From the IMG/VR virus record IMGVR_UViG_3300029915_000016, positions 1 through 64,000 of that record: DNA of 64,000 nucleotides; one strand, written 5' to 3'. Under the pieces are notes generated by a model that ran no database searches, had not been told where the DNA came from, and worked only from the letters and a program-made list of their open reading frames with translations. Below are positions 4,321 to 63,983 of the stretch, one piece after another. A program made the position numbers and the translations under genes. The stretch's first letter is position 1. Every line of letters begins with the position of its first letter. This DNA is from a virus.

Positions 4321-6441
4321 GTGCCTATCGTAACGGATGGTTCGTCTTCGCGTAATGCATTATTAGAGAACGTGTCGTGGCAATCTCCGCCTTTTTCCGC
4401 TCCTCCTGATCGTATTGTCAGTTGGGTTGAGGATCAAGTCTCGGAGGGTGAAGGTTTTCTCCAAAACCAAACATGCTACCAGAATCTCGGTAGCAATATG
4501 CGTATATTTGACGGCATATTTAAGGATAAATCTAAATCAACGCTTGTCACAAATCGCTTAAAATACAACATTAGAAAATTCTGTGAAACGCTGGCTGAGG
4601 TTAGAGAGATTGCCGGTTTCGGATCGGACATACCTGCCTACAAACAGTTTGCAGAGATGCTTACAAAGGTTTCAAAGTGTGTCTATCTAGAGTCCGATTT
4701 TCCATTCCAAATGCTGAAAGTTTTGCAGTATGCCTCCGTCATGGGGATAGGATACTTGTGGCCTAAAGTTCGGGCTACAGAGTACGGATATGGCGAGAGA
4801 AAGCTAATGTTCGATGCGCTAGGACTCTTGGATGTGGTTCCTGTCCAGATGTCAAATAGCCACGACATTCAAGACTGCTACGCGGTGACGGTGTACAACT
4901 ATATGCCTATCGCAGAGGCGCATGGTAGGTTTCCTTTATTCCAACACCTATTGCAGACGGTTGGGCCTCGTAACTATAAAACTCAGTTGCAGGCAAAGAG
5001 GATTGATTGGGCTGAGAAGTATAGATATGGAGATCAAGGACGCAGTTTTGGAAACCTATATACCGAGATTCGTTATACGTTTGTTAGGGATTTGAGAATC
5101 AACAACACAGGTTTTGAGTTGCCAATGGGAGACTTGGGAACGACGTGGTTTTACAAAGTTCCCTATGTCGGACAGGATATATTTGGAGGAATCAGGAATG
5201 GTCAGCCTTTCATGCGTCCTGCTCAAGTGGAGGATTGCCGGGTGTACCCTAACCTGCGGCTCATCATTACATCTTCAGGACTCAACCGCCCGATGTATGA
5301 CGGTCCTGCCTTCGATTGGGATAGTAATATACCGATTATCCAGTACACGGTAGATGATTGGGCATGGGAGCCTCTAGGACGGTCCTTGGTTGGCGATGTG
5401 GCCTCAATAGAAATGACTAAGAGAAAGCTGGAACGTCAACTAGATCAGGTAGTTACAGCAAGTTTGAATCCTCCGATGGGATACAATATTGACGAGAATT
5501 CAGGGGCAAAGGTGGAGCATTTCGACATCTTTGAACCTGATGTTCGCATGGGACTGGCAGGTGGTGAACCACAGAAGATGCTTCAGTCTCTACTCCCTGA
5601 CTCGGTAAGGGCAGATACGGTTCACTTCACGATGCTGAAGTATCTGGACGAGTGTGAACAGATGCAGCTTGGACTCACGGATCTAGGCAACCTTCAGAAT
5701 ATGAAGATGAACATTGCCAACGAGACGGCAGACAAGATGCTGGAGGGTATTGGTCCTATCGGAAAGGGTATCGCGGCTAGGATTGAAAAGGGAAACAAGA
5801 GGGTAGGAGAACGCATGAAGTTCTTAATCCCTCAGTGGTTCAACGTAAAACGGATTATGGAGTATGTAGGACCGGATGGGATGGCACGGGAGACATTCGA
5901 CTACGATCCTGACTCTCTAGTTCCCAGTCACATGCCCGATGAGATGATAAAAGGGAATTTCCCGGATACGGAATCTAAGTACGATCAGTTGACACGCGCA
6001 CGCTGGTTTGCGCGGCAGATCAGGCTCACATCTGTTCCTAGCACATTGTTGAAGATCACTCAGATGCAACAACAGATGCAAGCGTTGCAACTGAAGCGAT
6101 CCGGGGCTCCAATCTCATGGCAAACGTGCTTTGAACGTATGGATTTTCCTGACCCTAAGGGAGAGATTCAAAAGAGTTTCAAGGAAGAAGTTGAACTCCA
6201 AAAAATGAAGATTTTGGCTCAAATCGAAGTAATGAAGATCATGAAAGAGCTAGGAATTGATCCGTCTCAATTGCCGGGTGGAGAGGATCAAGGTAAGGGT
6301 GGTAAAGGTGGTGGAGGCGGAGGTAAAGGGGCGGGTGGACAACATGCAGGTGGGCGTCCCCCGAGCGGACAAAAACCACCACGATTGGCTTCTAAGGGTT
6401 CCCAAGGTGGTGATCCAAGAACGGTAGTCAAGGAGAGTTGA
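4321..6441 (+). CDS. portal protein
   Basis: 706 aa between terminase and scaffold/capsid; helical Gln/Met-rich then Gly-rich C-terminus as in P22-like portals; assignment mainly positional. Confidence 0.75.
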   Translation: MPIVTDGSSSRNALLENVSWQSPPFSAPPDRIVSWVEDQVSEGEGFLQNQTCYQNLGSNMRIFDGIFKDKSKSTLVTNRLKYNIRKFCETLAEVREIAGFGSDIPAYKQFAEMLTKVSKCVYLESDFPFQMLKVLQYASVMGIGYLWPKVRATEYGYGERKLMFDALGLLDVVPVQMSNSHDIQDCYAVTVYNYMPIAEAHGRFPLFQHLLQTVGPRNYKTQLQAKRIDWAEKYRYGDQGRSFGNLYTEIRYTFVRDLRINNTGFELPMGDLGTTWFYKVPYVGQDIFGGIRNGQPFMRPAQVEDCRVYPNLRLIITSSGLNRPMYDGPAFDWDSNIPIIQYTVDDWAWEPLGRSLVGDVASIEMTKRKLERQLDQVVTASLNPPMGYNIDENSGAKVEHFDIFEPDVRMGLAGGEPQKMLQSLLPDSVRADTVHFTMLKYLDECEQMQLGLTDLGNLQNMKMNIANETADKMLEGIGPIGKGIAARIEKGNKRVGERMKFLIPQWFNVKRIMEYVGPDGMARETFDYDPDSLVPSHMPDEMIKGNFPDTESKYDQLTRARWFARQIRLTSVPSTLLKITQMQQQMQALQLKRSGAPISWQTCFERMDFPDPKGEIQKSFKEEVELQKMKILAQIEVMKIMKELGIDPSQLPGGEDQGKGGKGGGGGGKGAGGQHAGGRPPSGQKPPRLASKGSQGGDPRTVVKES

Positions 6442-10603: not shown

Positions 10604-11440
10604 ATGCCATTACTCCAAGTTCTACCCACATTTACAGCGTGGAATAACATGAACAACGCCTCGCCTACGGGCATGACGGACCCCCAGACAGGACAGCCGT
10701 ATTATGCTGGTGGCTTGAACCTTGGCGACTACTTTGACGCTACGGAGCAGGAAGCAAACACTGCGTCGTATCTGACCAACGGCCTGTTGCACGCTGGACG
10801 GTATCGGATGGTGCAGGTTTCGGCAAACGCTACTGCTGCCAACGTGAAAGCTGGCACTGTTGGTTATATCCAACCGGGAACGTTTGTTCAGAACGTTTTA
10901 CAGTTGGTAGCCGGTTCTGGTATGACAGTGGGAACGTACACCACAACCACGACTGGTGGTGGTGCTACAACTCAGGCAACGATTCAAGTGACCGTATTGA
11001 CCGCAACCACAGTGTCTATCACGGTTTTGACTCCGGGTGTTGGATTCACTTCACTTCCAACAGTTACTGCCCCTTCTACTGGCGGAACACCTCCGACGTT
11101 TGTTGTTGAAATGGGTTACAGCGTAAACATGGTCACCAGCGCAGATATTGCCACCAACCTAGTTCGCCCTGTTGTGTTCTTGAACTCGATCACGCCGGGT
11201 AACTACGGATTTGTGCAGGAACTTGGAATCGCTACCGTGTTGTCAACTCTGGGAGCTTTTGCTCAAGTTGTTAACCAATTTGCCCTAGCTACATCTACAA
11301 CCCCTATAGGGCTAATGATTGGTTCTAGTGCTACTTTCACTAACACTGCAATCGGTTATGTTCTTGACCCTGTAACAACTGGAGCGACGGTAAATACGCC
11401 GTTCAAGGTTCTACTCAACGGTCCAGTAGTCCAAGACTAA
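10604..11440 (+). CDS. probable capsid decoration/cement protein
   Basis: AAGGAG RBS; Thr/Gly-rich; directly after the capsid gene; YGFVQ..G motif. Confidence 0.6.
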   Translation: MPLLQVLPTFTAWNNMNNASPTGMTDPQTGQPYYAGGLNLGDYFDATEQEANTASYLTNGLLHAGRYRMVQVSANATAANVKAGTVGYIQPGTFVQNVLQLVAGSGMTVGTYTTTTTGGGATTQATIQVTVLTATTVSITVLTPGVGFTSLPTVTAPSTGGTPPTFVVEMGYSVNMVTSADIATNLVRPVVFLNSITPGNYGFVQELGIATVLSTLGAFAQVVNQFALATSTTPIGLMIGSSATFTNTAIGYVLDPVTTGATVNTPFKVLLNGPVVQD

Positions 11441-47707: not shown

Positions 47708-47777
47708 GGGACACCTCACATCTCAGTAAACGACGTTTTTATCCTTTGCGATGTATCGGATTGAACAGGAGAGTGCA

Positions 47778-48659
47778 ATGAAAAACAGACGATGGGGCGA
47801 TAACGACAAGTATTGGGGTCCGTTTACATACGCGCATTCGGATAAAGAATACAATCCTTTCGCGGTTATACTTGGATCTGGAGACGAGGAGCATCCGGGG
47901 TGCTATCTCAGGCTTGGTGCATTCCATAGGACGCTGATCTGTTCGCTCCCGCCGATCATTCCACCGTATCGCAGGAAGGTAGTTGCGAAGTTTTGGAACG
48001 AGGATGACATTAAGCGTCTAGGACGCAACTGGTACTACGACGTTCATGAGCGTGAGTACGGATTCTCCTATGCCGCGAGTGGATGTATCGGAGATGGTGG
48101 ATTTCTGCAAGTCTTTCTTGGCCGTCAGACGCACGACAGCAGCAACGAACAGCGGTGGTCATGCTTCACGCCATGGAATAAATGGAATAACTGGCGTCAT
48201 GTGAGGAATAGTTATTACGGTTTGTATGGAGAGTTTTTTGCATCCGAACCACAGCATCGTATCGACTTCACTACGAAGGCAGGAAACGACAAGTACGCGG
48301 AGTGGACGGCGATTGTGGATGCTTGCCCTACGTTTACGTTCGCATTCAATGACTTTGACGGTGAGTTGCTAACCGCCAAAACTCGTATCGAGGAGCGCCA
48401 GTGGGAACTTGGAACTGGATGGTTTAAGTGGCTATCTAATTTCCATAAGCCAATCATTCACCGTTCGCTTGATATTCAATTCTCAGGCGAAACCGGAAAG
48501 CGCAAAGGATCATGGAAGGGTGGCACGGTAGGACATTCTATCGAGATGCTACCCGGAGAACTGCACGAGTCGGCGTTTAAGAGATACTGCAAAGAGCACG
48601 ATATGGTATTCCTTGGCAGGAGCGGAATAGGAGCATTTGACAATTCCCGTAGTGTGTGA
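47778..48659 (+). CDS. hypothetical protein
   Basis: AGGAG RBS; Trp-rich; FSGETGKRKGSWKGG. Confidence 0.7.
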   Translation: MKNRRWGDNDKYWGPFTYAHSDKEYNPFAVILGSGDEEHPGCYLRLGAFHRTLICSLPPIIPPYRRKVVAKFWNEDDIKRLGRNWYYDVHEREYGFSYAASGCIGDGGFLQVFLGRQTHDSSNEQRWSCFTPWNKWNNWRHVRNSYYGLYGEFFASEPQHRIDFTTKAGNDKYAEWTAIVDACPTFTFAFNDFDGELLTAKTRIEERQWELGTGWFKWLSNFHKPIIHRSLDIQFSGETGKRKGSWKGGTVGHSIEMLPGELHESAFKRYCKEHDMVFLGRSGIGAFDNSRSV

Positions 48660-48672
48660 GAGGATTTACCTC

Positions 48673-48744
48673 ATGAAGAACTTGTGCTTATCTCTATCGT
48701 CTTATTGCTCACTCAGTCTGAGTGGACGAGAGGCTATGGGATAA
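48673..48744 (+). CDS. leader peptide 1 (Leu/Ser/Cys/Tyr sensor) of tRNA operon A
   Basis: MKNLCLSLSSYCSLSLSGREAMG; TTGACA at 48637; codons match the downstream tRNAs. Confidence 0.8.
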   Translation: MKNLCLSLSSYCSLSLSGREAMG

Positions 48745-50038: not shown

Positions 50039-50346
50039 GAAAGCATTATACATCAAATCAAATAAGGCGCATTTTTTCCTTGACAACTCGCAAGGATAGC
50101 GATACGCTTTCTTTGGGTCTGGATGGCTTCGTATCCCGTTCAAGACGGACCCCACAAATGTCTACCAACGGGAGATAGGAGATAGCTTCTCGGTAGCTAT
50201 CTGACTTGGTGGAGTCCTATTCAATACGAAATGGGCCAGAATTTGACGCGGGGAGACGGTATTTATACGTTTCCCCGTTTTCTGTTATACTAGGGGTGTC
50301 GGATGTGTCACCATCCGGCAAAGCCTCATCGTTCGGAGGAACGAAT

Positions 50347-51087
50347 ATGACACCCCTATCCAAAGATACACCTATTACTCGTAAACGCGAAAGAGCATTA
50401 TATTATCGAGAGTATAGGAAGAAAAAAGGTGCAAATCAAAGATCAGAACAAGAAGCCTTGCGTCTAAAAGCATTAGAAGAATACATCAAAAACCCAAACG
50501 TATGCTTGTTTTGCTCAAAAGTAATTGAACCTAAAATAACAGAAAAACTCTCGATAACTAAACGTAAGAGATACTGTGACGTTAAATGCTCAAGTGCGTC
50601 AAGAAAGAGAGAGTGTAAGTGTGTACCATGCATCTACTGCGGTAAACCATTAAAGAGACACCTAAAGAAATTCTGCACGAAAAGCTGCGCGTCTCGGTCA
50701 AGGGGAATCTTGCAATCTATTACGAAAGGCGATCTTTTCTCGAAAAGATCTGGATACCAATCGGCGAGGAGCGCCATACAAAGGGATGCTAGAACTGTGT
50801 ACTTGTGGAGTAAAAGGAAACTGGAGTGTTTAATTTGTGGATACTCGAAGCATGTGGATATAGCGCACATCAAACCTGTTTCAGATTTCGATGATGCGTG
50901 TACTGTCGCTGAGATAAACGCGATGGATAACCTTGTTTCTCTATGTCCTAATCACCATTGGGAATTTGATCACGGTTTTTTGAAATTCAACGCTGGTTGC
51001 TTTGAAGGATCGAATACACGTAAAGTAATCCGAAAACGTGATTACGATCAAATAAACCTATTTCCACTAGCGCAGAATAATTCTTGA
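50347..51087 (+). CDS. HNH endonuclease
   Basis: GGAGGA RBS; CLICG...DIAHIKP...NLVSLCPNHHWEFD. Confidence 0.85.
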   Translation: MTPLSKDTPITRKRERALYYREYRKKKGANQRSEQEALRLKALEEYIKNPNVCLFCSKVIEPKITEKLSITKRKRYCDVKCSSASRKRECKCVPCIYCGKPLKRHLKKFCTKSCASRSRGILQSITKGDLFSKRSGYQSARSAIQRDARTVYLWSKRKLECLICGYSKHVDIAHIKPVSDFDDACTVAEINAMDNLVSLCPNHHWEFDHGFLKFNAGCFEGSNTRKVIRKRDYDQINLFPLAQNNS

Positions 51088-51118
51088 CAACTGTATATAA
51101 TTGCGTTATCGTTTAATT

Positions 51119-51196
51119 CGCGGGGTGGACTGGAGACGGTTCCAGCTTGGTCTCATAAGCCAAATCACGTCGGTTCGATTCCGATTCCCGCAACCA
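51119..51196 (+). tRNA. trnfM: initiator-type tRNA-Met(CAT)
   Basis: CGCGGGG start with C1:A72 mismatch; CT-CAT-AA; own TTGACA at 51084. Confidence 0.85.
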
Positions 51197-51850: not shown

Positions 51851-53090
51851 GTGAATCACCGTCATCTAAATCAGACAGTTTCCGGCTTCAATGGCATCTG
51901 CGTTAGCTAAAGACTTGCGTCCCAACTTCCGTCTTACGTTGCCTCCACCAGCAGTAGCGCCAATCCCTGACGCCAGTATCCGTAAACCTTCGTCACGGAT
52001 ATTCTTCGCCGCATTTATATCGCGGTCATGATGTGTTGAGCAGGATGGGCAGGTCCAAGAACGAACAATTAACGGCATCTTACCATTCTGAAATCCGCAC
52101 TCGGAACAAACTTTGCTTGACGGAAAAAAGCGTCCTATTTTTATGAAAGCCTTACCATCGCGCTCTGCTTTGTACTTGAGAAACAATGTTAGTGTTCCCC
52201 ACCCTACATCTGATACTGCTTTCGCAAGGTTATGGTTAGCTATCATTCCCTTCACATTCAAATCCTCTACGATCACGACTTGGTTCTCATCAATGATCTT
52301 GCGAGAGACTTTGTGAAGGTAATCACGGCGCTGGTTTGTGATATGTTCATGAACTCGTGCAACCTGAATACGTGCTTTGTTGCGACTTGATGAGCCTTTC
52401 TTTTTGCGACTCAAAGATTGCTGCTTACGCTTTAGATTCTTTTCTGACTTGGCAATCCAGCGAGGATTATTAAACTTCGATCCATCGCTAGTAATTGCTA
52501 AATGCGTTAAACCTACGTCTACACCGATTGCCTTCCCTTCGATAGAAATAGGAGGAACAGGAATAGAATCATCGGTAAGAATCGAAGCGTAGTAGTGGCC
52601 GCATGGATTCTTGCTCACCGTGACCGTCTTGATTCGTCCAACAATCTCACGGTGTATGACAGCCTTAACTTTGCCAACTTTAGGAAGATTTATTATACTC
52701 CCGTCTATTTTAACGTGTTGCGGATACTGAATCGACTGTTTTCTATGCTTAGATTTGAATCGTGGATATCTAGCCCTCTTCTCAAAGAAGTTCTGGAACG
52801 CTGCTGCCAAATTACGAATTGATGATTGAAGGACTTGCGCGTATGCGTCTTTCATCCATTCATGTTCTGTTTTCAATTCAGGCAAACGATTCGCCATTGC
52901 AACAAATGTGAGACTTTTTCCGGTTTCCTTGTACACTTTCTGCGTTTCCGCCAAAGCCCAATTCCACGTCCAACGAGCACATCCAAACTGGCATACAAGT
53001 AAATTTTCCTGCTCAAAGGTGGGATAGAGACGAAATTTTGTCGTATTCAACATTTATTTAATCCTACCATGTATACGATTAAATGTCAAT
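51851..53090 (-). mobile_element. TnpB-only IS1341-like element; right end ...GATTCAC at 51851
   Basis: Subterminal hairpin ACTGTC...GACGGT then TTCAC on the minus strand; no tnpA; left end undefined. Confidence 0.6.
51866..53053 (-). CDS. tnpB: TnpB RNA-guided endonuclease (IS200/IS605 family)
   Basis: FRLYP...FGCARWTWN; RuvC GVDVG, IVEDL, DRDINAA; zinc finger. Confidence 0.95.
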   Translation of the reverse strand: MLNTTKFRLYPTFEQENLLVCQFGCARWTWNWALAETQKVYKETGKSLTFVAMANRLPELKTEHEWMKDAYAQVLQSSIRNLAAAFQNFFEKRARYPRFKSKHRKQSIQYPQHVKIDGSIINLPKVGKVKAVIHREIVGRIKTVTVSKNPCGHYYASILTDDSIPVPPISIEGKAIGVDVGLTHLAITSDGSKFNNPRWIAKSEKNLKRKQQSLSRKKKGSSSRNKARIQVARVHEHITNQRRDYLHKVSRKIIDENQVVIVEDLNVKGMIANHNLAKAVSDVGWGTLTLFLKYKAERDGKAFIKIGRFFPSSKVCSECGFQNGKMPLIVRSWTCPSCSTHHDRDINAAKNIRDEGLRILASGIGATAGGGNVRRKLGRKSLANADAIEAGNCLI

Positions 53091-53158: not shown

Positions 53159-53232
53159 GGTCCCATGGTCTAACGGTATGATTCATCTCTGTCTAAGATG
53201 CGTTCGGGGTTCGACTCCCCGTGGGATCGCCA
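53159..53232 (+). tRNA. trnD: tRNA-Asp(GTC)
   Basis: CATCT-CT-GTC-TA-AGATG; GCCA. Confidence 0.9.
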
Positions 53233-53239
53233 TAGTTGT

Positions 53240-53323
53240 GCTGCCGTTCTCGGTACTGGTATCTGAGCACCGTCTTTCAAGCGGTTGAATTTAATGCGAG
53301 TTCGATTCTCGTCGGCAGCGCCA
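53240..53323 (+). tRNA. trnE: tRNA-Glu(TTC)
   Basis: ACCGT-CT-TTC-AA-GCGGT; GCCA. Confidence 0.85.
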
Positions 53324-53660: not shown

Positions 53661-53690
53661 TTGACATTTGAAAACGAACAAGGATATAGT
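53661..53690 (+). promoter_or_regulatory. sigma70 promoter of tRNA operon B
   Basis: TTGACA-18 nt-TATAGT; ATG 7 nt downstream. Confidence 0.75.
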
Positions 53691-53697
53691 GAAAAAC

Positions 53698-53772
53698 ATG
53701 ATGACCTTTACCACACATACCGCGACACAAGCACCGACGCAGCCAGCCGGTAATCGCGGAAGTGCAGGATAG
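53698..53772 (+). CDS. leader peptide 2 (Thr/Phe/His/Ala/Gln/Pro/Gly/Asn/Arg sensor) of tRNA operon B
   Basis: MMTFTTHTATQAPTQPAGNRGSAG; codons match the downstream tRNAs. Confidence 0.8.
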   Translation: MMTFTTHTATQAPTQPAGNRGSAG

Positions 53773-53814
53773 GGTCTCAGTAGGATTTTTACTCGCATAG
53801 CGAATAAAACTGAA

Positions 53815-53853
53815 GAGGCCCGGTTCAAACCAACGAATCGGGCCTTAGTGCGT
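53815..53853 (+). terminator. attenuator hairpin of tRNA operon B (weak U-tract)
   Basis: GAGGCCCGGTTC...GAATCGGGCCTT followed by AGTGCGT. Confidence 0.6.
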
Positions 53854-53863
53854 AGGAGTAGCA

Positions 53864-54301
53864 ATGGGGAAAGCGATTCACGTTATTAGCAATGTTGATG
53901 AAGATATGAAGACGGCAGATTGTGCGTTTTGTGGTCGCGTGAAAGTGAAACTGAAAAATAATGGTAAGGGTAGATCAAGGCGGTGGGCATGTACTATCGC
54001 GCAGAAAAAATGGGACGGTGCAAGATGTAAAACAGGAAAACCGCTTCGCAATATGACAGACGAGCAAATGGCTCACTACGTATTCAATCGACACGGAAGT
54101 TGTGATATTTGCGGTAGCGTACCACGCCGAATGTTGAACCGAGATCACTGCCATGTAACAGGAAACCTTCGCGGCTTGCTGTGCTATCGCTGTAATACGC
54201 TGCTAGGAAAATTTGATGACAGCATCGAGAAACTCCGTATAAAGGCAGATATTTTCCTGAAGGCGGCATGTTATCTCGAAAGGAACGATACAAAGTTTTG
54301 A
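53864..54301 (+). CDS. endonuclease VII-family HNH endonuclease
   Basis: CDICG...RDHCHVTGNLRGLLCYRCNTLLG. Confidence 0.85.
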   Translation: MGKAIHVISNVDEDMKTADCAFCGRVKVKLKNNGKGRSRRWACTIAQKKWDGARCKTGKPLRNMTDEQMAHYVFNRHGSCDICGSVPRRMLNRDHCHVTGNLRGLLCYRCNTLLGKFDDSIEKLRIKADIFLKAACYLERNDTKF

Positions 54302-54388
54302 TGTGCGATACCCGAGAGGTAGCAGGGACGATACTGTTAATATCGAGAGGTTTATCCTCCACCGTAGGTTCGAATCCTACTCGCACAG
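54302..54388 (+). tRNA. trnN: tRNA-Asn(GTT) with long variable arm, no encoded CCA
   Basis: CGATA-CT-GTT-AA-TATCG. Confidence 0.85.
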
Positions 54389-54403
54389 CCTTTAGTAAGA
54401 AGT

Positions 54404-54477
54404 ACCTCGTTCGTTCAACGGCAGGACGACTGACTCTGACTCAGTTAATTGACGTTCAAATCGTCAACGGGGTGCCA
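54404..54477 (+). tRNA. trnQ: tRNA-Gln(CTG)
   Basis: ACTGA-CT-CTG-AC-TCAGT; GCCA. Confidence 0.9.
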
Positions 54478-54488
54478 AAGATTAACGT

Positions 54489-54562
54489 GGGATCGTCGTT
54501 CAACGTTAGGACATTGCCCTTTGGAGGCAATTATCAAGGTTAGAATCCTTGCGATCCTGCCA
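54489..54562 (+). tRNA. trnQ: tRNA-Gln(TTG)
   Basis: TTGCC-CT-TTG-GA-GGCAA; GCCA. Confidence 0.9.
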
Positions 54563-54570
54563 AACAGTAA

Positions 54571-54645
54571 GCGGGTGTATATCAACGGTAGATAGTCTCG
54601 TTGCCAACGAGAAGGAAGAGGGATCGTCACCCTCCACCCGCTCCA
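54571..54645 (+). tRNA. trnG: tRNA-Gly(GCC)
   Basis: TCTCG-TT-GCC-AA-CGAGA; TCCA. Confidence 0.85.
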
Positions 54646-54740
54646 TATTAGGAATAGTAGCCGACATGGAACATAAGATGATTTTGATGAGTGCCGACTT
54701 CCGAGAGGTACACAAGGTTGTAGTGGCAAAACGTAAACAT

Positions 54741-54815
54741 GCTGGTATGGCCGAGAGCTTAGGCGCTGACCCCGTAAGTCAGAACACACAGGTTGAAATC
54801 CTGTTGCCAGCCCCA
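54741..54815 (+). tRNA. trnT: tRNA-Thr(CGT), C33
   Basis: CTGAC-CC-CGT-AA-GTCAG. Confidence 0.8.
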
Positions 54816-54850
54816 TTTCAAGAGAGTCAAGCTACGGATTGAGGTACGTG

Positions 54851-55396
54851 ATGAGCACGTTGATGAAAAAGCCGGTTTTGGTCCTTAACGCCTCGTATGA
54901 GCCGATCAGGATAGTTCCAGCGCGTCGTGCTCTCACGTTGATTTGTAAGGGTGCTGCAATGGTTGAGCAACCTACACGGATAGAAGTCTATCCGGGTATA
55001 ACTCTACCATCTGTAATCCGGCTTAGGACATATCGGCATATTCCTATACGCCTTCAAATTGTCAGTCGCAAGAACATTTATATCCGTGACGGTCATAGGT
55101 GCGGATATTGTGGACAGCAATTCAAAGGTGATGAACTGACGTTAGATCACATTCAACCAAGATCCCGTGGAGGAAAGAACGACTGGTCTAACCTAGTAAC
55201 TTGCTGCCGAAAAGACAACCATCGTAAGGCAGACAGGACGCCAGAGGAGGCAGGAATGAAACTGCTCCGTAAGCCTCTTCCGGCAACAGTTCACACAGGA
55301 CGTGGATTGCTACGTTCCATGGCGCTTGAAGTTGGGGCGTGGGAAAAGTATTTGTATTCCGACTCAAAAGGAGAAACGAAGTTGCAGTTTTCGTAA
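54851..55396 (+). CDS. McrA-like HNH endonuclease
   Basis: VLVLNASYEP; RD..RCGYCG...LTLDHIQPRSRGGKNDWSNLVTCC...N..K. Confidence 0.9.
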   Translation: MSTLMKKPVLVLNASYEPIRIVPARRALTLICKGAAMVEQPTRIEVYPGITLPSVIRLRTYRHIPIRLQIVSRKNIYIRDGHRCGYCGQQFKGDELTLDHIQPRSRGGKNDWSNLVTCCRKDNHRKADRTPEEAGMKLLRKPLPATVHTGRGLLRSMALEVGAWEKYLYSDSKGETKLQFS

Positions 55397-55400
55397 GTTT

Positions 55401-55472
55401 GCCGAATGCTCTGAGTAGCAGCGGGAGCTTGTATCTCCTGCCCGGTCGGTTCGATTCCGACATTCGGCTCCA
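55401..55472 (+). tRNA. trnT: tRNA-Thr(TGT)
   Basis: GGGAG-CT-TGT-AT-CTCCT; TCCA. Confidence 0.8.
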
Positions 55473-55572
55473 AGTGGCTGAGGAAGCCAATCCGTTAAGC
55501 GTGGAGCACATGGCTTAACGGGCTAGGGGACACGGGGCGAGTGCTACGCAATCCGACTCCACCAAAGTTCAT

Positions 55573-55648
55573 GGCGGCTATAGTTCAGAGGCAGAACGCC
55601 GGTCTGTGGCATCGGATGTCGGGATTTCAAAATTCCCTAGCCGCCCCA
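55573..55648 (+). tRNA. trnH: tRNA-His(GTG)
   Basis: G-1:C73; CCGGT-CT-GTG-GC-ATCGG. Confidence 0.9.
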
Positions 55649-55655
55649 TTTTAAC

Positions 55656-55730
55656 GGGCCAGTAGCATAGATGTAATGCGTCACCCCTGCAAGGTGAAGT
55701 TCGAGGACTCAAGCCCCTCCTGGTCCACCA
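55656..55730 (+). tRNA. trnA: tRNA-Ala(TGC), C33
   Basis: G3:U70; TCACC-CC-TGC-AA-GGTGA. Confidence 0.85.
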
Positions 55731-55739
55731 GTTTTGTAC

Positions 55740-55816
55740 GGCACTGTAGCTCAGAATGGTAGAGCAGGACTCTGAAAAGGTCCGTGTCGCGGTCTCGATA
55801 GCCGCCAGTGCCACCA
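55740..55816 (+). tRNA. trnF: tRNA-Phe(GAA)
   Basis: GGACT-CT-GAA-AA-GGTCC; ACCA. Confidence 0.85.
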
Positions 55817-55817
55817 T

Positions 55818-55895
55818 CGGAATGTAGCGTAGTCTGCTTAACGCGCTCGCTTCGGGAGCGAGAGATCGCAGGTCGAAATCCTGCCATTCCGACCA
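55818..55895 (+). tRNA. trnP: tRNA-Pro(CGG)
   Basis: CTCGC-TT-CGG-GA-GCGAG; C1-G72, ACCA. Confidence 0.9.
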
Positions 55896-55901
55896 GTTTA
55901 A

Positions 55902-55976
55902 CGGGGTGTAGCTCAAAGGAAGAGCACTAGTTTTGGGAACTAGAGGCTGTGGTATCGTGATCCACCACCCCGACCA
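55902..55976 (+). tRNA. trnP: tRNA-Pro(TGG)
   Basis: CTAGT-TT-TGG-GA-ACTAG. Confidence 0.9.
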
Positions 55977-55992
55977 TCTATTAGGAGTAGCG

Positions 55993-56238
55993 ATGAGGGA
56001 TATAACAATACAGGAAGCATCCGAGTGTATCAAGAGAACGCTACCGCGCTGCACGCCTGATATTTGGTTTCTCACGCGCTTCAAGGATTACGTGAATAAC
56101 AACACAGAAGTTGACGATATGGAGGAAGATGAATTTTTCGATAGTTTTCTTCCTTGCGCTTTGTGGGCTTTCACTGAAGCGATGTACAGCACGATTATGC
56201 CAGTTACTAGGTTTGGCGAATGTGCGCCTCTAGCTTAA
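55993..56238 (+). CDS. small acidic hypothetical protein
   Basis: AGGAG RBS; 3' end overlaps tRNA-Arg. Confidence 0.55.
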   Translation: MRDITIQEASECIKRTLPRCTPDIWFLTRFKDYVNNNTEVDDMEEDEFFDSFLPCALWAFTEAMYSTIMPVTRFGECAPLA

Positions 56239-56299
56239 TGGAAAGAGCGGCACTCTACGAAAGTGTCAGGTTCCCGTTCAAGTCGGGAGGGGCGTACCA
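56224..56299 (+). tRNA. trnR: tRNA-Arg(ACG)
   Basis: GCACT-CT-ACG-AA-AGTGT; ACCA. Confidence 0.9.
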
Positions 56300-56358: not shown

Positions 56359-56477
56359 TGGAAATGTTGAGTTTGAGCTTCGGTGCAGGAATGGAAACAT
56401 GACCATCCTGACGAATTAGGTCTCAGAGTATCGAGCCTTGTAGCTAGGTTACAGGACGGCTACCACCGGAAATAAGT

Positions 56478-56623
56478 AAGCGAGAGCCGGAAGAGTTGGA
56501 TTATCGCCTATGGAGCGGGTTATACGGGTTCGAGTCCCGTCTGGGGAACCAATAACGAATCGACTTCCCCGGTCGTCTAATGGCAGGACGCCTAAACATC
56601 CAGTTCGCTATTTGTTCTCGCTT
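56478..56623 (+). ncRNA. Y RNA-like 1 (YrlA-type, permuted tRNA module)
   Basis: GAGCCG/TTTGTTC stem enclosing T arm, acceptor stem, D arm in permuted order. Confidence 0.8.
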
Positions 56624-56630
56624 TAAGTTT

Positions 56631-56760
56631 TGCACGAGCCGTCCGAATTTCGTTATCCTCCGCCAAACTGGGGGCGTAGCTTAATGGCTAAAGCGCCAGA
56701 GTAATCTGGATATTGGGTTCGAGTCCCACGTCAACGCGAAGTTCAATTTTTGTTCGTGCA
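56631..56760 (+). ncRNA. Y RNA-like 2 (non-permuted tRNA module)
   Basis: GAGCCG/TTTGTTC stem enclosing D arm, GTAA-capped stem and T arm. Confidence 0.75.
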
Positions 56761-56767
56761 GTTTTTT

Positions 56768-56826
56768 GTACGGGTCGGAAGCCAGCGTTACCTTGTAAAT
56801 ATCGCTGTCTGATTATTTATCCGTAC
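56768..56826 (+). ncRNA. Y RNA-like 3 (minimal)
   Basis: GTACGGGTCG/TTTATCCGTAC. Confidence 0.7.
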
Positions 56827-56842
56827 CAATGGAGAGTGAATC

Positions 56843-57322
56843 ATGGGTTTCATAGCCGAAGTTTCAGCCACAGATAGGTTTTGGAGTAAGGTTGATAAAT
56901 CGGCTGGGCATGGTCCAAACGGGGACTGTTGGGTTTGGACTGCACGTAGGAATTTAGATGGCTATGGGCAGTTTCGTCCTTCCTCTTGGAGATCAGGTGG
57001 TAAACTTGTAAGCGCACACGTATTTTCGTATCGCGAGAGTTTTGGCGAGTTTGATGCTGGATTACAAGTCCTGCATCGCTGCGATAATCCGGCTTGCGTT
57101 AGGGCAGAACATTTGTTTGTAGGTACGCAGGGTGACAATGTTCACGACATGATAGCGAAAAATAGATCGGGCCTAAATTTTCTTGGCTCTGATGTGATCG
57201 CTAACATTCTCGCGATGCATGGCAAAGGGATTAAACAGACAGAAATTGCCAAGAACGTTGGGATACACAAGCAATCTGTCTGGAGAATCATTAAGAGGAT
57301 GGCGGTAAAATCCTTGGCGTGA
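56843..57322 (+). CDS. HNH homing endonuclease (HNH_3-like) with C-terminal HTH
   Basis: RFWSKV...CWVWT...GYGQF...AH...VLHRCDNPACVRAEHL..GT..DN. Confidence 0.9.
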   Translation: MGFIAEVSATDRFWSKVDKSAGHGPNGDCWVWTARRNLDGYGQFRPSSWRSGGKLVSAHVFSYRESFGEFDAGLQVLHRCDNPACVRAEHLFVGTQGDNVHDMIAKNRSGLNFLGSDVIANILAMHGKGIKQTEIAKNVGIHKQSVWRIIKRMAVKSLA

Positions 57323-57329
57323 TAAGTTT

Positions 57330-57399
57330 TGCATGGGTCGTTTGGCTCAGCGTTATCCTTCTAAGATAAAACCGCTGGCTGGTTGTTTTTATCCATGCA
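57330..57399 (+). ncRNA. Y RNA-like 4
   Basis: TGCATGGGTCG/TTTATCCATGCA. Confidence 0.7.
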
Positions 57400-57407
57400 G
57401 TGTTTCA

Positions 57408-57550
57408 AAGTGCGAGTCGAAAGAAGTTGATTATCTCAACATGAATGTCATGGGTTCGATTCCCATCGTCGTAGTAATACGATGTAGCTCAGTTGGTAGA
57501 GCGTCTGGATGCCGAAAGGCGTATTCGACTTCAACCATTTATTCGCACTT
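57408..57550 (+). ncRNA. Y RNA-like 5 (classic YrlA architecture)
   Basis: GAGTCG/TTTATTC stem; T arm, GTAA-closed acceptor stem, D arm TAGCTCAGTTGGTAGAGC. Confidence 0.85.
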
Positions 57551-57554
57551 AAGT

Positions 57555-57656
57555 TTGTCAGAGCCGGATGGGTTTGGTTATCGGTTCAAATCCGCTACAC
57601 CGCAAGGTGAATGGCTGTCCGCAAGGACAATCCAAATCCGCTATTTGTTCTGACAA
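57555..57656 (+). ncRNA. Y RNA-like 6
   Basis: GAGCCG/TTTGTTC stem; T-loop hairpin plus two GCAA tetraloops. Confidence 0.75.
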
Positions 57657-57662
57657 TAAGTT

Positions 57663-57739
57663 TGCAGGGTCGGAAGTTCACTGTTCTCTACTACGAATAG
57701 AATGCCGAAAGGCGCACGGTGGGCACTATTTATCCTGCA
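57663..57739 (+). ncRNA. Y RNA-like 7
   Basis: TGCAGGGTCG/TTTATCCTGCA; GAAA tetraloop. Confidence 0.7.
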
Positions 57740-57807: not shown

Positions 57808-59493
57808 ATGAAGAACTATATCACCAATGTAATTGATCCATCCACCACGCCTCAGACTGAGGCACTTCCAAACAAAAACCAAGTGAAGAACTCCGCTGGC
57901 GGATTCGTGTTTGCTGTGACGCCATGGACCCGGCTTGAGAGGTTCCTTGTACTGGGAACTGAGGGCGGATCATACTACGCATCAGAGCGCGATCTGACCA
58001 AGACCAACATCGATGGCCTCAAGTCTGCTTTGGCTGAGGATGGCATCCGGTTTGTCAACACGGTTGCCCAAATCAGTCATGCTGGCCGTGCGCCGAAGAA
58101 TGATCCTGCGTTGTTTGCATTGGCTTTGGCTGTTGCCGACAAGCGCAAGGATGTATCCGCATACGCCCTGAGCAAGCTGTCAGACGTGGCGAGAATTCCC
58201 ACACACCTGTTTTCCTTTGCACAGTACGTGCAGAGCCTACGGGGTTGGGGAAGGGCGCTGCGTGGTGGAGTGGCTGATTGGTATCTGTCTAAGCCTGCTG
58301 ACAAGTTGGCTTACCAACTTGCAAAGTACCAGTCGCGTAACGGATGGTCAAACGCAGACCTTTTGCGCCTGAGTCATGCCAACCCTGAGTTGCAGCCTGA
58401 CCATAAGATTCTTTTGAATTGGGCTGTGAAGGGATGGGAGTCTGTTGGTGACGATCCTCATCCGTCAAAGGCTGTTCTTCCGGTGTGGGCATTTGAAAAG
58501 GCAAAGCGCCTCACTCCTCAAACGGGAATCAAGGAACTGGTTAGTCTCATTGCGGATTACGATCTTCCGCGTGAGTGCATTCCTACCGAGTTCTTGTCTC
58601 ATATTGAGGTATGGGATGCATTGCTTCAGAAGATGCCAATGACGGCCATGATTCGCAACCTTGGAAAGATGACTTCCATCGGACTAGTCTCGCCAAACAG
58701 TGAGGCGGCAAAGATGGTAGGAAAGCGCCTTGAGGACGCAGAACTGCTCCACAAGGCACGGATTCATCCTATCTCTGTGCTGATGGCACAATCTGTCTAC
58801 AAGTGCGGTCATGGACTCAAAGGCAACTTGTCATGGTCTCCTGTACCGCGTGTTGTAAACGCTCTAGAGAAGGCTTTCTATGCTTCTTTTGCCAACGCAC
58901 CAAAGACCGGAAAGAGGTTCTACATCGGCCTTGACGTTTCCGGTTCGATGGGAAGCGGATATGTTGCCGGAAGTCAATTGACTCCTCGTGAGGCTGCTGC
59001 TGCTATGGCAATGGTAACCATGAAGACGGAGGACGAGTATTACATCGCTGGATTCACGAACGGCACATCCCGCTCTGCATGGTCTAGCCAAGGATATGGC
59101 TCTGGTGTCACGAAGTTGGAATTGACTCCTGATATGACTTTGAAAGCTGCTTGCCGGTACACTTCTGATTTGCCTTTCGGTGGAACAGACTGCGCTTTGC
59201 CAATGATCGATGCTTTGGAGAAGAAGATCCCTGCGGACGTGTTCATGGTCATCACTGACTCTGAAACGTGGGCAGGAACCAAGCACCCAACCGTTGCTTT
59301 GCAGGAATACCGCAACAAGATGAAGATCGACGCCAAGTTGATCGTCATGGGAATGGTATCGAACGAGTTCACGATTGCCGATCCTACCGATGCGGGACAG
59401 ATGGACGTGGTTGGATTCGATGCGTCCGTTCCACAGGTCATCGCTCAGTTCATCGGCGTGGATGAGCCTCTGGCTGTTGAAACAGACGACTAA
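57808..59493 (+). CDS. rsr: Ro60 (TROVE + vWA) RNA-binding protein
   Basis: QVKNSAGGFVF, RLERFLVLGTEGGSYY, KYQSRNGWS..DLLRLSH, MPMTAMIRNLGKMT, vWA DVSGSM, GGTDC, TDSETW. Confidence 0.95.
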   Translation: MKNYITNVIDPSTTPQTEALPNKNQVKNSAGGFVFAVTPWTRLERFLVLGTEGGSYYASERDLTKTNIDGLKSALAEDGIRFVNTVAQISHAGRAPKNDPALFALALAVADKRKDVSAYALSKLSDVARIPTHLFSFAQYVQSLRGWGRALRGGVADWYLSKPADKLAYQLAKYQSRNGWSNADLLRLSHANPELQPDHKILLNWAVKGWESVGDDPHPSKAVLPVWAFEKAKRLTPQTGIKELVSLIADYDLPRECIPTEFLSHIEVWDALLQKMPMTAMIRNLGKMTSIGLVSPNSEAAKMVGKRLEDAELLHKARIHPISVLMAQSVYKCGHGLKGNLSWSPVPRVVNALEKAFYASFANAPKTGKRFYIGLDVSGSMGSGYVAGSQLTPREAAAAMAMVTMKTEDEYYIAGFTNGTSRSAWSSQGYGSGVTKLELTPDMTLKAACRYTSDLPFGGTDCALPMIDALEKKIPADVFMVITDSETWAGTKHPTVALQEYRNKMKIDAKLIVMGMVSNEFTIADPTDAGQMDVVGFDASVPQVIAQFIGVDEPLAVETDD

Positions 59494-59949: not shown

Positions 59950-60024
59950 ATGCAGATCAGGACCAAATCCGTGAGATCCATAACCATGACCGGGAAGCGG
60001 GTCATTTGGGGAACTTGCGTATGA
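59950..60024 (+). CDS. leader peptide 3 (Ile/Arg/Thr/Lys/Val/Met/Gly/Trp sensor) of tRNA operon C
   Basis: GGAAGGA RBS; MQIRTKSVRSITMTGKRVIWGTCV; codons match the downstream tRNAs. Confidence 0.8.
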   Translation: MQIRTKSVRSITMTGKRVIWGTCV

Positions 60025-62729: not shown

Positions 62730-63983
62730 TTGACAATTACATCGTAACATAGTATTGTGTGAATGTGAGCATTAAACGCGCATATCGTTTTCGAGTTACC
62801 CCCACGCCTGCTCAAGAGAACATCCTTGCTCGGACGTTTGGGAGTGCGCGTTTTGCCTACAATTACATGCTTCGTCTGCGAACGGATGCATGGTTCAACG
62901 AACAGAAGAGAATCGGCTACCATGAAACCTCCGCTATTCTGACAAAACTAAAGGATAATCCAGAATTCGAGTGGTTGAACGAAGTCAGTTGTGTTCCCGT
63001 CCAGCAATCGTTAAGGCACCTCCAAACCGCTTTTGGAAACTTCTTTGCGCACCGGAACAAGTATCCTATGTTCAAGAAGAAGGACGGAAAACAAGCTGCG
63101 GAGTACACAACTAGCGCATTCAAGTGGGATGGGAAAGAACTGAAACTGGCGAAGATGGATGAACCATTAAATATTATCTGGTCCCGTTCTATCCCTAAAG
63201 CGGCTAAGGTAACAACTTGTACAGTGTCTAAAGACTGCTCAGGCCGATACTTTGTTTCAATGCTATGCGATGATTCAGTAAGCGCAAAGCCTGAAGTTGA
63301 TGGGAAAGTTGGAATTGATCTTGGATTGACACACTTTGCAATTCTGTCCAATGGAGAAAAGATTGCATCTCCTAATACTTTCCGTAAGAACGAAGCTAGA
63401 CTTGCCATACTGCAAAGGAGACTAGCAAAGAAGCATAAAGGTTCCGCCAATCGCGCAAAGGCAAAGCTGAAAGTAGCACGTATCCATGCCAAGATAGCCG
63501 ATACGCGAAAAGATTTTCTCCACAAACTCTCTACACGGCTGATAAACGAAAACCAAGTGATCTCCGTCGAGAGTCTAGCAGTAAACAACATGCAAAAGAA
63601 CCATAGTCTTGCAAAGTCAATCTCCGATGCGAGTTGGTCAGAGTTTGTGAGGCAACTGGAGTACAAAGCACTTTGGTACGGACGCACTTTAATAGGAATT
63701 GATCGCTGGTATCCATCTAGTAAACGATGCAACGATTGCGGGTATACCATCGGTTCTCTTCCGTTGAACGTTCGAGAGTGGACTTGTCCAGAGTGCGGCG
63801 TGGTCCATGATCGAGACATAAACGCAGCACGTAATATCTTGGCCGTAGGGCTTGCGGTGTCAGTCTGTGGAGAGGATGTAAGTCCCGTGTTGCTGTAAAG
63901 CGACATTGGCAGTCCTCGGTGAAGCAGAAAGTCTCAACAGTGATGTTGGGAATCCACCCTCTTTAAGGGGTGGAGGATGTCAA
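62730..63983 (+). mobile_element. TnpB-only IS1341-like element with omega-RNA region; right end ...GGATGTCAA
   Basis: TCCACCCT-CTTTA-AGGGGTGGA hairpin then GGATGTCAA; no tnpA; left end approximate. Confidence 0.7.
62759..63898 (+). CDS. tnpB: TnpB RNA-guided endonuclease (IS200/IS605 family)
   Basis: AYRFRVTP...FGSARFAYN; RuvC GIDLG, SVESL, DRDINAA; zinc finger. Confidence 0.95.
   Translation: MNVSIKRAYRFRVTPTPAQENILARTFGSARFAYNYMLRLRTDAWFNEQKRIGYHETSAILTKLKDNPEFEWLNEVSCVPVQQSLRHLQTAFGNFFAHRNKYPMFKKKDGKQAAEYTTSAFKWDGKELKLAKMDEPLNIIWSRSIPKAAKVTTCTVSKDCSGRYFVSMLCDDSVSAKPEVDGKVGIDLGLTHFAILSNGEKIASPNTFRKNEARLAILQRRLAKKHKGSANRAKAKLKVARIHAKIADTRKDFLHKLSTRLINENQVISVESLAVNNMQKNHSLAKSISDASWSEFVRQLEYKALWYGRTLIGIDRWYPSSKRCNDCGYTIGSLPLNVREWTCPECGVVHDRDINAARNILAVGLAVSVCGEDVSPVLL

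Follow-up and report, generated by a model that had tools for sequence, protein, structure and literature searches.

Background

Does a phage that carries tRNA genes gauge the supply of tRNAs before it transcribes them? This question is raised by a compact, self-contained element of about 190 nt, attenuator B, which stands upstream of twelve tRNA genes in a phage whose DNA was found in 20 metagenome runs from peat. The reasons for which phages carry tRNAs, and the way in which these are deployed, have been debated for decades, and to our knowledge little has been established about the regulation of phage tRNAs. According to recent work, tRNAs encoded by a phage rescue its infection when the host defends itself by cleaving tRNAs (PMC10264068, PMC11464382).

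The window analysed here comprises the first 64 kb (64,000 nt) of an 82.6-kb IMG/VR virus record, IMGVR_UViG_3300029915_000016, and encodes terminase, portal, capsid and tail-fibre proteins. The tRNA region of the phage (48.8-61.5 kb) also contains homing-endonuclease genes, two TnpB genes, the CBASS inhibitor Acb3 and a Ro60 homologue. A first-pass annotation, made by a model from the letters of the sequence alone, had proposed that tRNA operon B is preceded by an attenuator whose leader peptide matches all 12 of its tRNAs. The coordinates and letters given there for the leader, the pairing strands and the hairpin were all correct, and the attenuator reading is supported by 15 homologous leaders that retain the codon set while its order reshuffles. 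In our assessment, attenuator B is likely to be a trp-style, ribosome-mediated transcription attenuator that reads tRNA supply. This interpretation is built on sequence and modelled folds, and two things restrict confidence in it: this copy has a weak U-tract, and transcript and translation data are lacking.

The codons of leader B match the tRNAs of operon B

Operon B (54302-56299, plus strand) comprises 12 tRNA genes and an HNH gene (54839-55396), in the order Asn, Gln, Gln, Gly, Thr, HNH, Thr, His, Ala, Phe, Pro, Pro, Arg. The anticodons are GTT for Asn, CTG and TTG for Gln, GCC for Gly, CGT and TGT for Thr, GTG for His, TGC for Ala, GAA for Phe, CGG and TGG for Pro, and ACG for Arg. Eleven of the 12 tRNAs were identified with ARAGORN; tRNA-Ala(TGC), at 55656-55727, was missed by this program, found by Rfam and read by eye. 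Running ARAGORN with introns and lowered thresholds proved too noisy.

A sigma-70-type promoter is predicted on the plus strand at 53661-53690, with the -35 element TTGACA at 53661-66, an 18-nt spacer and the -10 element TATAGT at 53685-90. It is near-consensus (11/12) and is the top promoter match within 47-64 kb. Leader ORF B follows at 53698-53772 on the same strand and consists of 24 codons and a TAG stop codon (53770-72). The reading frame quoted in the first-pass annotation was short by three codons (Ser-Ala-Gly). Because the ATG at 53698 starts 7 nt past the -10 element and a Shine-Dalgarno sequence is absent, the leader-B mRNA is probably leaderless.

The putative sensing core, codons 3-20 (53704-53757, plus strand), encodes solely Thr, Phe, His, Ala, Gln, Pro, Gly, Asn and Arg. 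These nine amino acids are exactly those served by the 12 tRNAs, as had been claimed. Each of the 12 anticodons has at least one readable codon in the leader under standard wobble, and CAA, CAG, CCG and CCA occur once each, which bears out the earlier remark that both Gln codons and both Pro codons appear singly. The broader claim that the leader matches all 12 tRNAs held for the amino acids and the anticodons and had to be qualified for the codons: ACC (three occurrences) and GCC are not readable by operon-B anticodons under standard wobble, so that 18/18 core codons are in set by amino acid and 14/18 are strictly readable. ACC apart, individual core codons are present once or twice each, without runs.

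All small ORFs of 12-30 codons in the whole 82.6-kb genome were then compared with the operon. Among these 2396 ORFs, leader B alone (with its nested starts) covered 12/12 anticodons. Full coverage was found in 20 of the 165,082 23-codon windows taken in all frames, and leader B ranked first of 3771 small ORFs for the amino acids of set B (p ~1e-6). The codon match of leader B is far beyond chance.

Leaders A and C match their own operons

Leader ORF A (48673-48744) stands before operon A, whose tRNAs are Leu (three), Cys, Ser (four) and Tyr. It has 23 codons, of which 14 consecutive ones specify L, S, C or Y, covers 9/9 anticodons of its own operon, and is followed by a U-tailed terminator. 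The gene for the CBASS inhibitor Acb3 (47751-48659; Pfam PF25187, E 2e-74) stops 14 nt short of leader A, and the leader-A promoter overlaps the 3' end of this gene.

Leader ORF C (59950-60024) has 24 codons, in which all the amino acids of operon C/D are present, and likewise has a U-tailed terminator. The tRNAs of operon C/D are Trp, Met, Ile (two), Lys (two), Arg (three), Val, Thr and Gly, and in the small-ORF test leader C ranked first for this set. The fractions of codons belonging to the leader's own set were 0.64, 0.95 and 0.83 for leaders A, B and C of the present phage (G000), and at most 0.45 for the other sets. Across four phage genomes the own-set fractions were 0.58-0.95 as against 0-0.56 for other sets; the B and C sets have G, T and R in common. 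Every own-set amino acid was present in 12/12 leaders (three operons in four genomes).

The Asp and Glu tRNAs (53159-53323) are the only standard tRNAs of the phage without a codon-matched leader upstream; a small ORF rich in D and E was sought upstream of them and was absent here and in the relatives G001 and G003. Two TnpB genes (OrfB_IS605/Cas12f-like) lie within the tRNA region, at 51866-53053 on the minus strand and at 62759-63898 on the plus strand, and the first of these stands between the Asp/Glu tRNAs and the upstream transcription unit. A promoter-like site (TTGACA, 17 nt, TATCGT) with a tRNA-like element directly after it was seen at 51084-51196. This element was assigned a 2-nt anticodon by ARAGORN and scored just below threshold in Rfam (27.6 bits), and it recurs at the equivalent position in G001.

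In Ro60 phages with tRNA arrays (L024, with 41 tRNAs, and L011, L012, L017 and L027), a crude generic scan of truncated loci found no convincing codon-matched leader, so the design is not universal. The Ro60 gene of the present phage (TROVE and vWA) is preceded by tRNA-like and Y-RNA-like elements, gene and elements together falling within 56400-57700 and 57808-59493. Among these elements are an odd tRNA at 56670-56736 and two sub-threshold Rfam YrlA matches, one at 57417-57531 (41 bits) and the other at 56497-56621. A YrlA-like match is also present in the relative L030 (7099-7159).

The leader-B family across peat phages

L030 and L031, two syntenic phages of about 135 kb, were reached through a neighbouring 107-aa protein. 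They bear the same attenuator elements, although the RNA motif was not used to find them. A search with the RNA motif added a third relative of about 135 kb, L053, and 16 peat metagenome contigs. Since GGGTCTCA and GAGGCCC were both fixed in the search pattern, their invariance was imposed in the 17 matches and is informative only for L030 and L031. A blastn search of GenBank phages with the region gave zero matches, a search of IMG/VR with the major capsid protein did not find relatives, and a search with the back-translated leader pattern returned no matches. The RNA motif of attenuator B was matched in none of 185,579 species genomes of bacteria and archaea, which therefore offer no prophage copy and no clue to the host.

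Fifteen distinct DNA versions of leader B were obtained from peat phage contigs. All 15 contain the hexamer TTGACA, although the search pattern did not include it, and the start codon (or GTG-ATG) lies 6-7 nt past the -10 element across the variants. The leader frame is open for 21-28 codons in 15/15 variants, with stops in the other two frames, and survives indels between variants. All 12 anticodons are covered in every version. The order of the peptide is reshuffled between versions, with CAA/CAG, CCA/CCG and ACA/ACG trading places, and all three of these codon pairs are retained in 14 of the 15. By random synonymous choice the three pairs would be kept with a chance of 1-5% per version; the versions are related and so are not independent trials. 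CCT, the top Pro codon of the phage genes (36%), is absent from the leader-B cores.

Most revealing is how in-set codons are distributed along the leader relative to GGGTCTC (region 2; 53772-53778, plus strand), the predicted 5' strand of the antiterminator, which in this phage begins on the last base of the stop codon. In-set codons make up 94% of the core (247/262), 67% of codons 2-3 and 55% of the tail, against a background of 47%. Codons were assigned to the tail if their 3' end fell inside GGGUCUC or less than 11 nt away from it, and the last sensing codon lies at least 11 nt upstream of GGGUCUC. On the ribosome model, a ribosome stalled from the start of the tail onwards would sit on region 2 and so could not signal. 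Across the family the stop codon is found at -6, -2 or +9 relative to GGGUCUC (GGGTCTCA), always at a position from which, to judge by the spacing, a terminating ribosome would cover GGGUCUC.

The tRNA gene order Asn-Gln-Gln-Gly-Thr-Thr-His-Ala-Phe-(Pro)-Pro-Arg is conserved in relatives. CCG is kept in relatives that lack tRNA-Pro(CGG), and in some relatives the core includes a codon for Lys, Ser or Asp, for which the corresponding tRNA is missing. As the tRNA set hardly varies within the B family, the case for covariation between leader and operon rests on the contrast between A, B and C. Relatives also carry tRNAs with stop-codon anticodons, located in L031 at 5862-5933 and 10903-10988 and in the G003 region L072 at ~8880. 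One of them has the anticodon TCA and a strong Rfam tRNA score (65 bits), and another has TTA according to ARAGORN. Lying downstream of operons B and C, they are possibly suppressor tRNAs.

Predicted folds of the RNA switch

In nascent RNA, modelled before the 3' arm of the downstream hairpin is made, the minimum free energy (MFE) structure pairs GGGUCUC with GAGGCCC (region 3; 53815-21) around the inner hairpin P2, with -18.9 kcal/mol in this copy. This pairing had been proposed in the first-pass annotation, and in its full 7/7 pairs it is the nascent MFE structure in 14/14 hairpin variants. P2 (53787-53809, plus strand), which is nested in the antiterminator, is a 10-bp stem with one C-A mismatch and a 3-nt loop. 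Compensatory changes were found at 3/10 of its pairs, and 86% of its cells were paired as against 25-58% when the stem was slid. The unpaired cells in helix 1 of the pair-count table are alignment artefacts. A flanking CAG/CTG pairing beside the antiterminator was considered and dropped because its covariation was inconsistent.

The terminator-like hairpin occupies 53815-53846 on the plus strand (5' arm 53815-26, loop 53827-34, 3' arm 53835-46). Its predicted stem has the 12 bp first described for it, including 2 G-U pairs, at -21 kcal/mol. At least nine distinct sequences of this stem keep complementarity, with energies of -17 to -25 kcal/mol; covariation was judged here from per-sequence folds and not from pair counts because the MAFFT alignment was out of register. 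GAGGCCC forms the first 7 nt of the 5' arm and is thereby shared by two mutually exclusive predicted folds, pairing either with GGGUCUC or with the downstream arm. When a ribosome was modelled at the stop codon, solely P2 and the terminator formed. The equilibrium energies favour the terminator (-21 kcal/mol) over the antiterminator (-19 kcal/mol), and the switch could therefore work only kinetically, as in trp. The same switch logic was predicted for attenuators A and C, in which the antiterminators are more stable than the terminators.

A possible region 1 (53699-53708, plus strand), the 5' end UGAUGACCUU, is predicted to pair with region 2 and so to close a long leader hairpin. In MFE folds of 15/15 variants this hairpin forms with the 5' end, including the start codon, paired to GGGUCUCA. 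The region 1:2 duplex fell within the top 5% of background in 10/15 variants, and for this reason the role suggested for region 1 is held loosely: it would possibly restore termination after release of the ribosome and block re-initiation, an inference from the model.

A leader that folds as a long hairpin (z = -2.3 for the present phage), lacks a Shine-Dalgarno sequence and ends its core peptide in a PQGNR-like motif conserved in the family could also be an untranslated structured 5' leader RNA, or the gene of a small functional peptide, whose resemblance to the tRNA set is incidental. We give this explanation hardly any credence, since three leaders of differing composition each fit their own operon in four genomes, codon pairs are kept at the level of isoacceptors even though the order is shuffled, the in-set frequency falls to background exactly where stalling could not signal, and the frame is preserved through indels.

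The weak U-tract and the EndoVII-type gene

The tail past the hairpin (53847-53858, plus strand) has 2 U in 12 nt, upholding the caveat about a poor U-tract that accompanied the original proposal, and contains AGGAG, the Shine-Dalgarno sequence of the EndoVII-type gene that follows. This U count is the family minimum (2-7 in relatives, with 5 in L030 and 7 in L054). The weak tail is common to a subfamily of six variants, and the hairpin at 53815-53846 was not called by the terminator scan. With so few U residues, intrinsic termination may be inefficient or require a host factor.

The EndoVII-type, homing-endonuclease-like gene (53864-54301, plus strand; Pfam PF02945, Endonuclease_7, E 1e-14) sits between the hairpin of attenuator B and tRNA-Asn, which it abuts; its type and position had been correctly annotated. 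Comparison with relatives lacking the endonuclease had also been suggested as a check on the attenuator. In 8 of the 12 variants examined this slot holds no ORF of at least 40 aa, and in the remainder it holds unrelated ORFs. The distance from region 2 to tRNA-Asn is 89-530 nt in the 8 empty-slot variants and 89-115 nt in six of those, in which the hairpin lies about 20 nt before tRNA-Asn. Judged by this comparison, the EndoVII-type gene is a lineage-specific insertion in a usually empty slot and, having been inserted after the attenuator, would be co-regulated with the tRNAs. HNH-type endonuclease genes are also found among the tRNA genes, at 54839-55396, 50206-51087 and 56843-57322 (Pfam HNH_5, HNH_2, HNH_3), and the tRNA region stands out as a homing-endonuclease hot spot.

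The leader could be translated and sense decoding speed with an output other than intrinsic termination, be it the processing or stability of the RNA, the maturation of the first tRNA at its 5' end, Rho or pause-dependent events, or translation of the endonuclease. Such an output would suit the weakness of the U-tract in this copy and the rest of its subfamily, the short distance between hairpin and tRNA-Asn in relatives without the insertion, and the presence of the endonuclease Shine-Dalgarno sequence in the tail. It was nevertheless considered unlikely, as attenuators A and C share this architecture within the one phage and do have canonical U-tracts, and several B relatives have U-rich tails, among them L054 with 7 U in 12 nt.

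Attenuator B of the present phage could, on the other hand, be a decayed copy with a leaking terminator, from which operon B and the endonuclease are expressed roughly constitutively by the strong promoter. Although this copy does have the lowest U count of the family (2/12) and an endonuclease gene inserted directly past its hairpin, its leader core is intact: all 18 codons belong to the set, and all 12 anticodons have a readable codon. The weak tail recurs in at least five other variants whose leaders are likewise intact, which argues for continued selection, and decay was accordingly left with only a slim chance of being correct.

Proposed mechanism

In the attenuator that we favour, translation, stalling, termination and the biological trigger are inferred from sequence features, statistics, conservation and predicted folds. 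Transcription would begin at the first base of the ATG or adjacent to it, and a ribosome would load on the resulting leaderless mRNA and trail the polymerase. If the 18-codon checklist were decoded promptly, the ribosome at the stop codon would cover GGGUCUC, GAGGCCC would pair downstream into the 12-bp hairpin, and transcription would halt before the tRNA genes. If a usable tRNA were missing and the ribosome stalled at any core codon, GGGUCUC would be free to pair with GAGGCCC around P2, so that the terminator would be blocked and the polymerase would read into the EndoVII-type gene and the 12 tRNAs. If the ribosome were released, or in the absence of translation, the 5' end may pair with GGGUCUC and termination would be restored.

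Such an element would behave as an OR-gate, in which shortage of any one of 12 tRNAs turns on the entire replacement set, and the product of the operon would feed back negatively on attenuator B. The phage would thus probably transcribe the operon-B tRNAs only when ribosomes are short of them, with the reservation that termination has not been shown. The general form of the idea, that phages gate tRNA operons by checklist attenuators which sense the loss of any of about a dozen tRNAs and replace exactly that set, is advanced tentatively and with somewhat more doubt than belief. The losses so sensed could be caused, for example, by host anticodon nucleases or by the phage's own shut-off of the host. 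On this more tentative reading the attenuators would amount to a translation-coupled sensor for tRNA-targeting immunity.

If the proposed mechanism is true, the phage gauges tRNA supply directly by means of the ribosome and makes replacements on demand. As attenuator B is compact and self-contained, it is easily tested in reporters, and it could find use as a natural sensor that reports when specific tRNAs are depleted.

Comparison with known regulatory systems

Leader-peptide attenuators may be multivalent, as in thrL (Thr and Ile) and ilvL (Ile, Leu and Val); trpL, hisL and pheL also belong to this type, and the his and phe leaders contain runs of regulatory codons. In E. coli, the phenylalanyl-tRNA synthetase operon pheST (leader pheM) is controlled by leader-peptide attenuation that responds to charged tRNA. 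A leader-peptide attenuator has also been documented for pheL (PMC3082878). Attenuator B resembles these enterobacterial attenuators in its short ORF rich in regulatory codons, in its predicted antiterminator and terminator hairpins, which are mutually exclusive, in the placing of the stop codon, at which a terminating ribosome would mask the antiterminator strand, and possibly in the 1:2 pairing. It differs in what it would control, namely an endonuclease gene and 12 tRNAs, whereas attenuators of the trp, his, thr and ilv type control biosynthetic or aminoacyl-tRNA synthetase genes. Its leader is a checklist of 12 anticodons with one or two codons each, in contrast to a run of codons for one to three amino acids. 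Unlike the enterobacterial attenuators, its mRNA appears to be leaderless and this copy lacks a U-tract. The pheST attenuator likewise governs a component of the translation apparatus, but this is a synthetase for one amino acid and not a set of tRNA genes.

No ribosome is involved in a T-box, which itself binds uncharged tRNA through a specifier loop and the T-box motif. Like attenuator B as proposed here, it is a 5' leader in which terminator and antiterminator alternate according to tRNA status, recognised by codon-anticodon pairing. A T-box identity was ruled out for attenuator B, which has a conserved ORF instead: no Rfam T-box match was found in the region, either at the gathering threshold or at E<=1.

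Among published systems, the closest in function is the trn L-array of Anabaena PCC 7120, which is supernumerary, horizontally mobile and induced under translational stress (PMC8421152), and which likewise stays off as long as translation is unimpaired. The array is under the control of TrcR, a protein repressor that acts on direct repeats in the promoter (PMC10272220), whereas attenuator B is proposed to act through a leader peptide; neither a leader peptide nor attenuation is mentioned in the two Anabaena papers (PMC8421152, PMC10272220). A search of the literature for leader-peptide attenuation of tRNA genes found no account of it. If attenuator B works as proposed, it would be the first case in which leader-peptide attenuation controls tRNA genes, and the principle of the trp attenuator would extend from amino-acid supply to tRNA supply.
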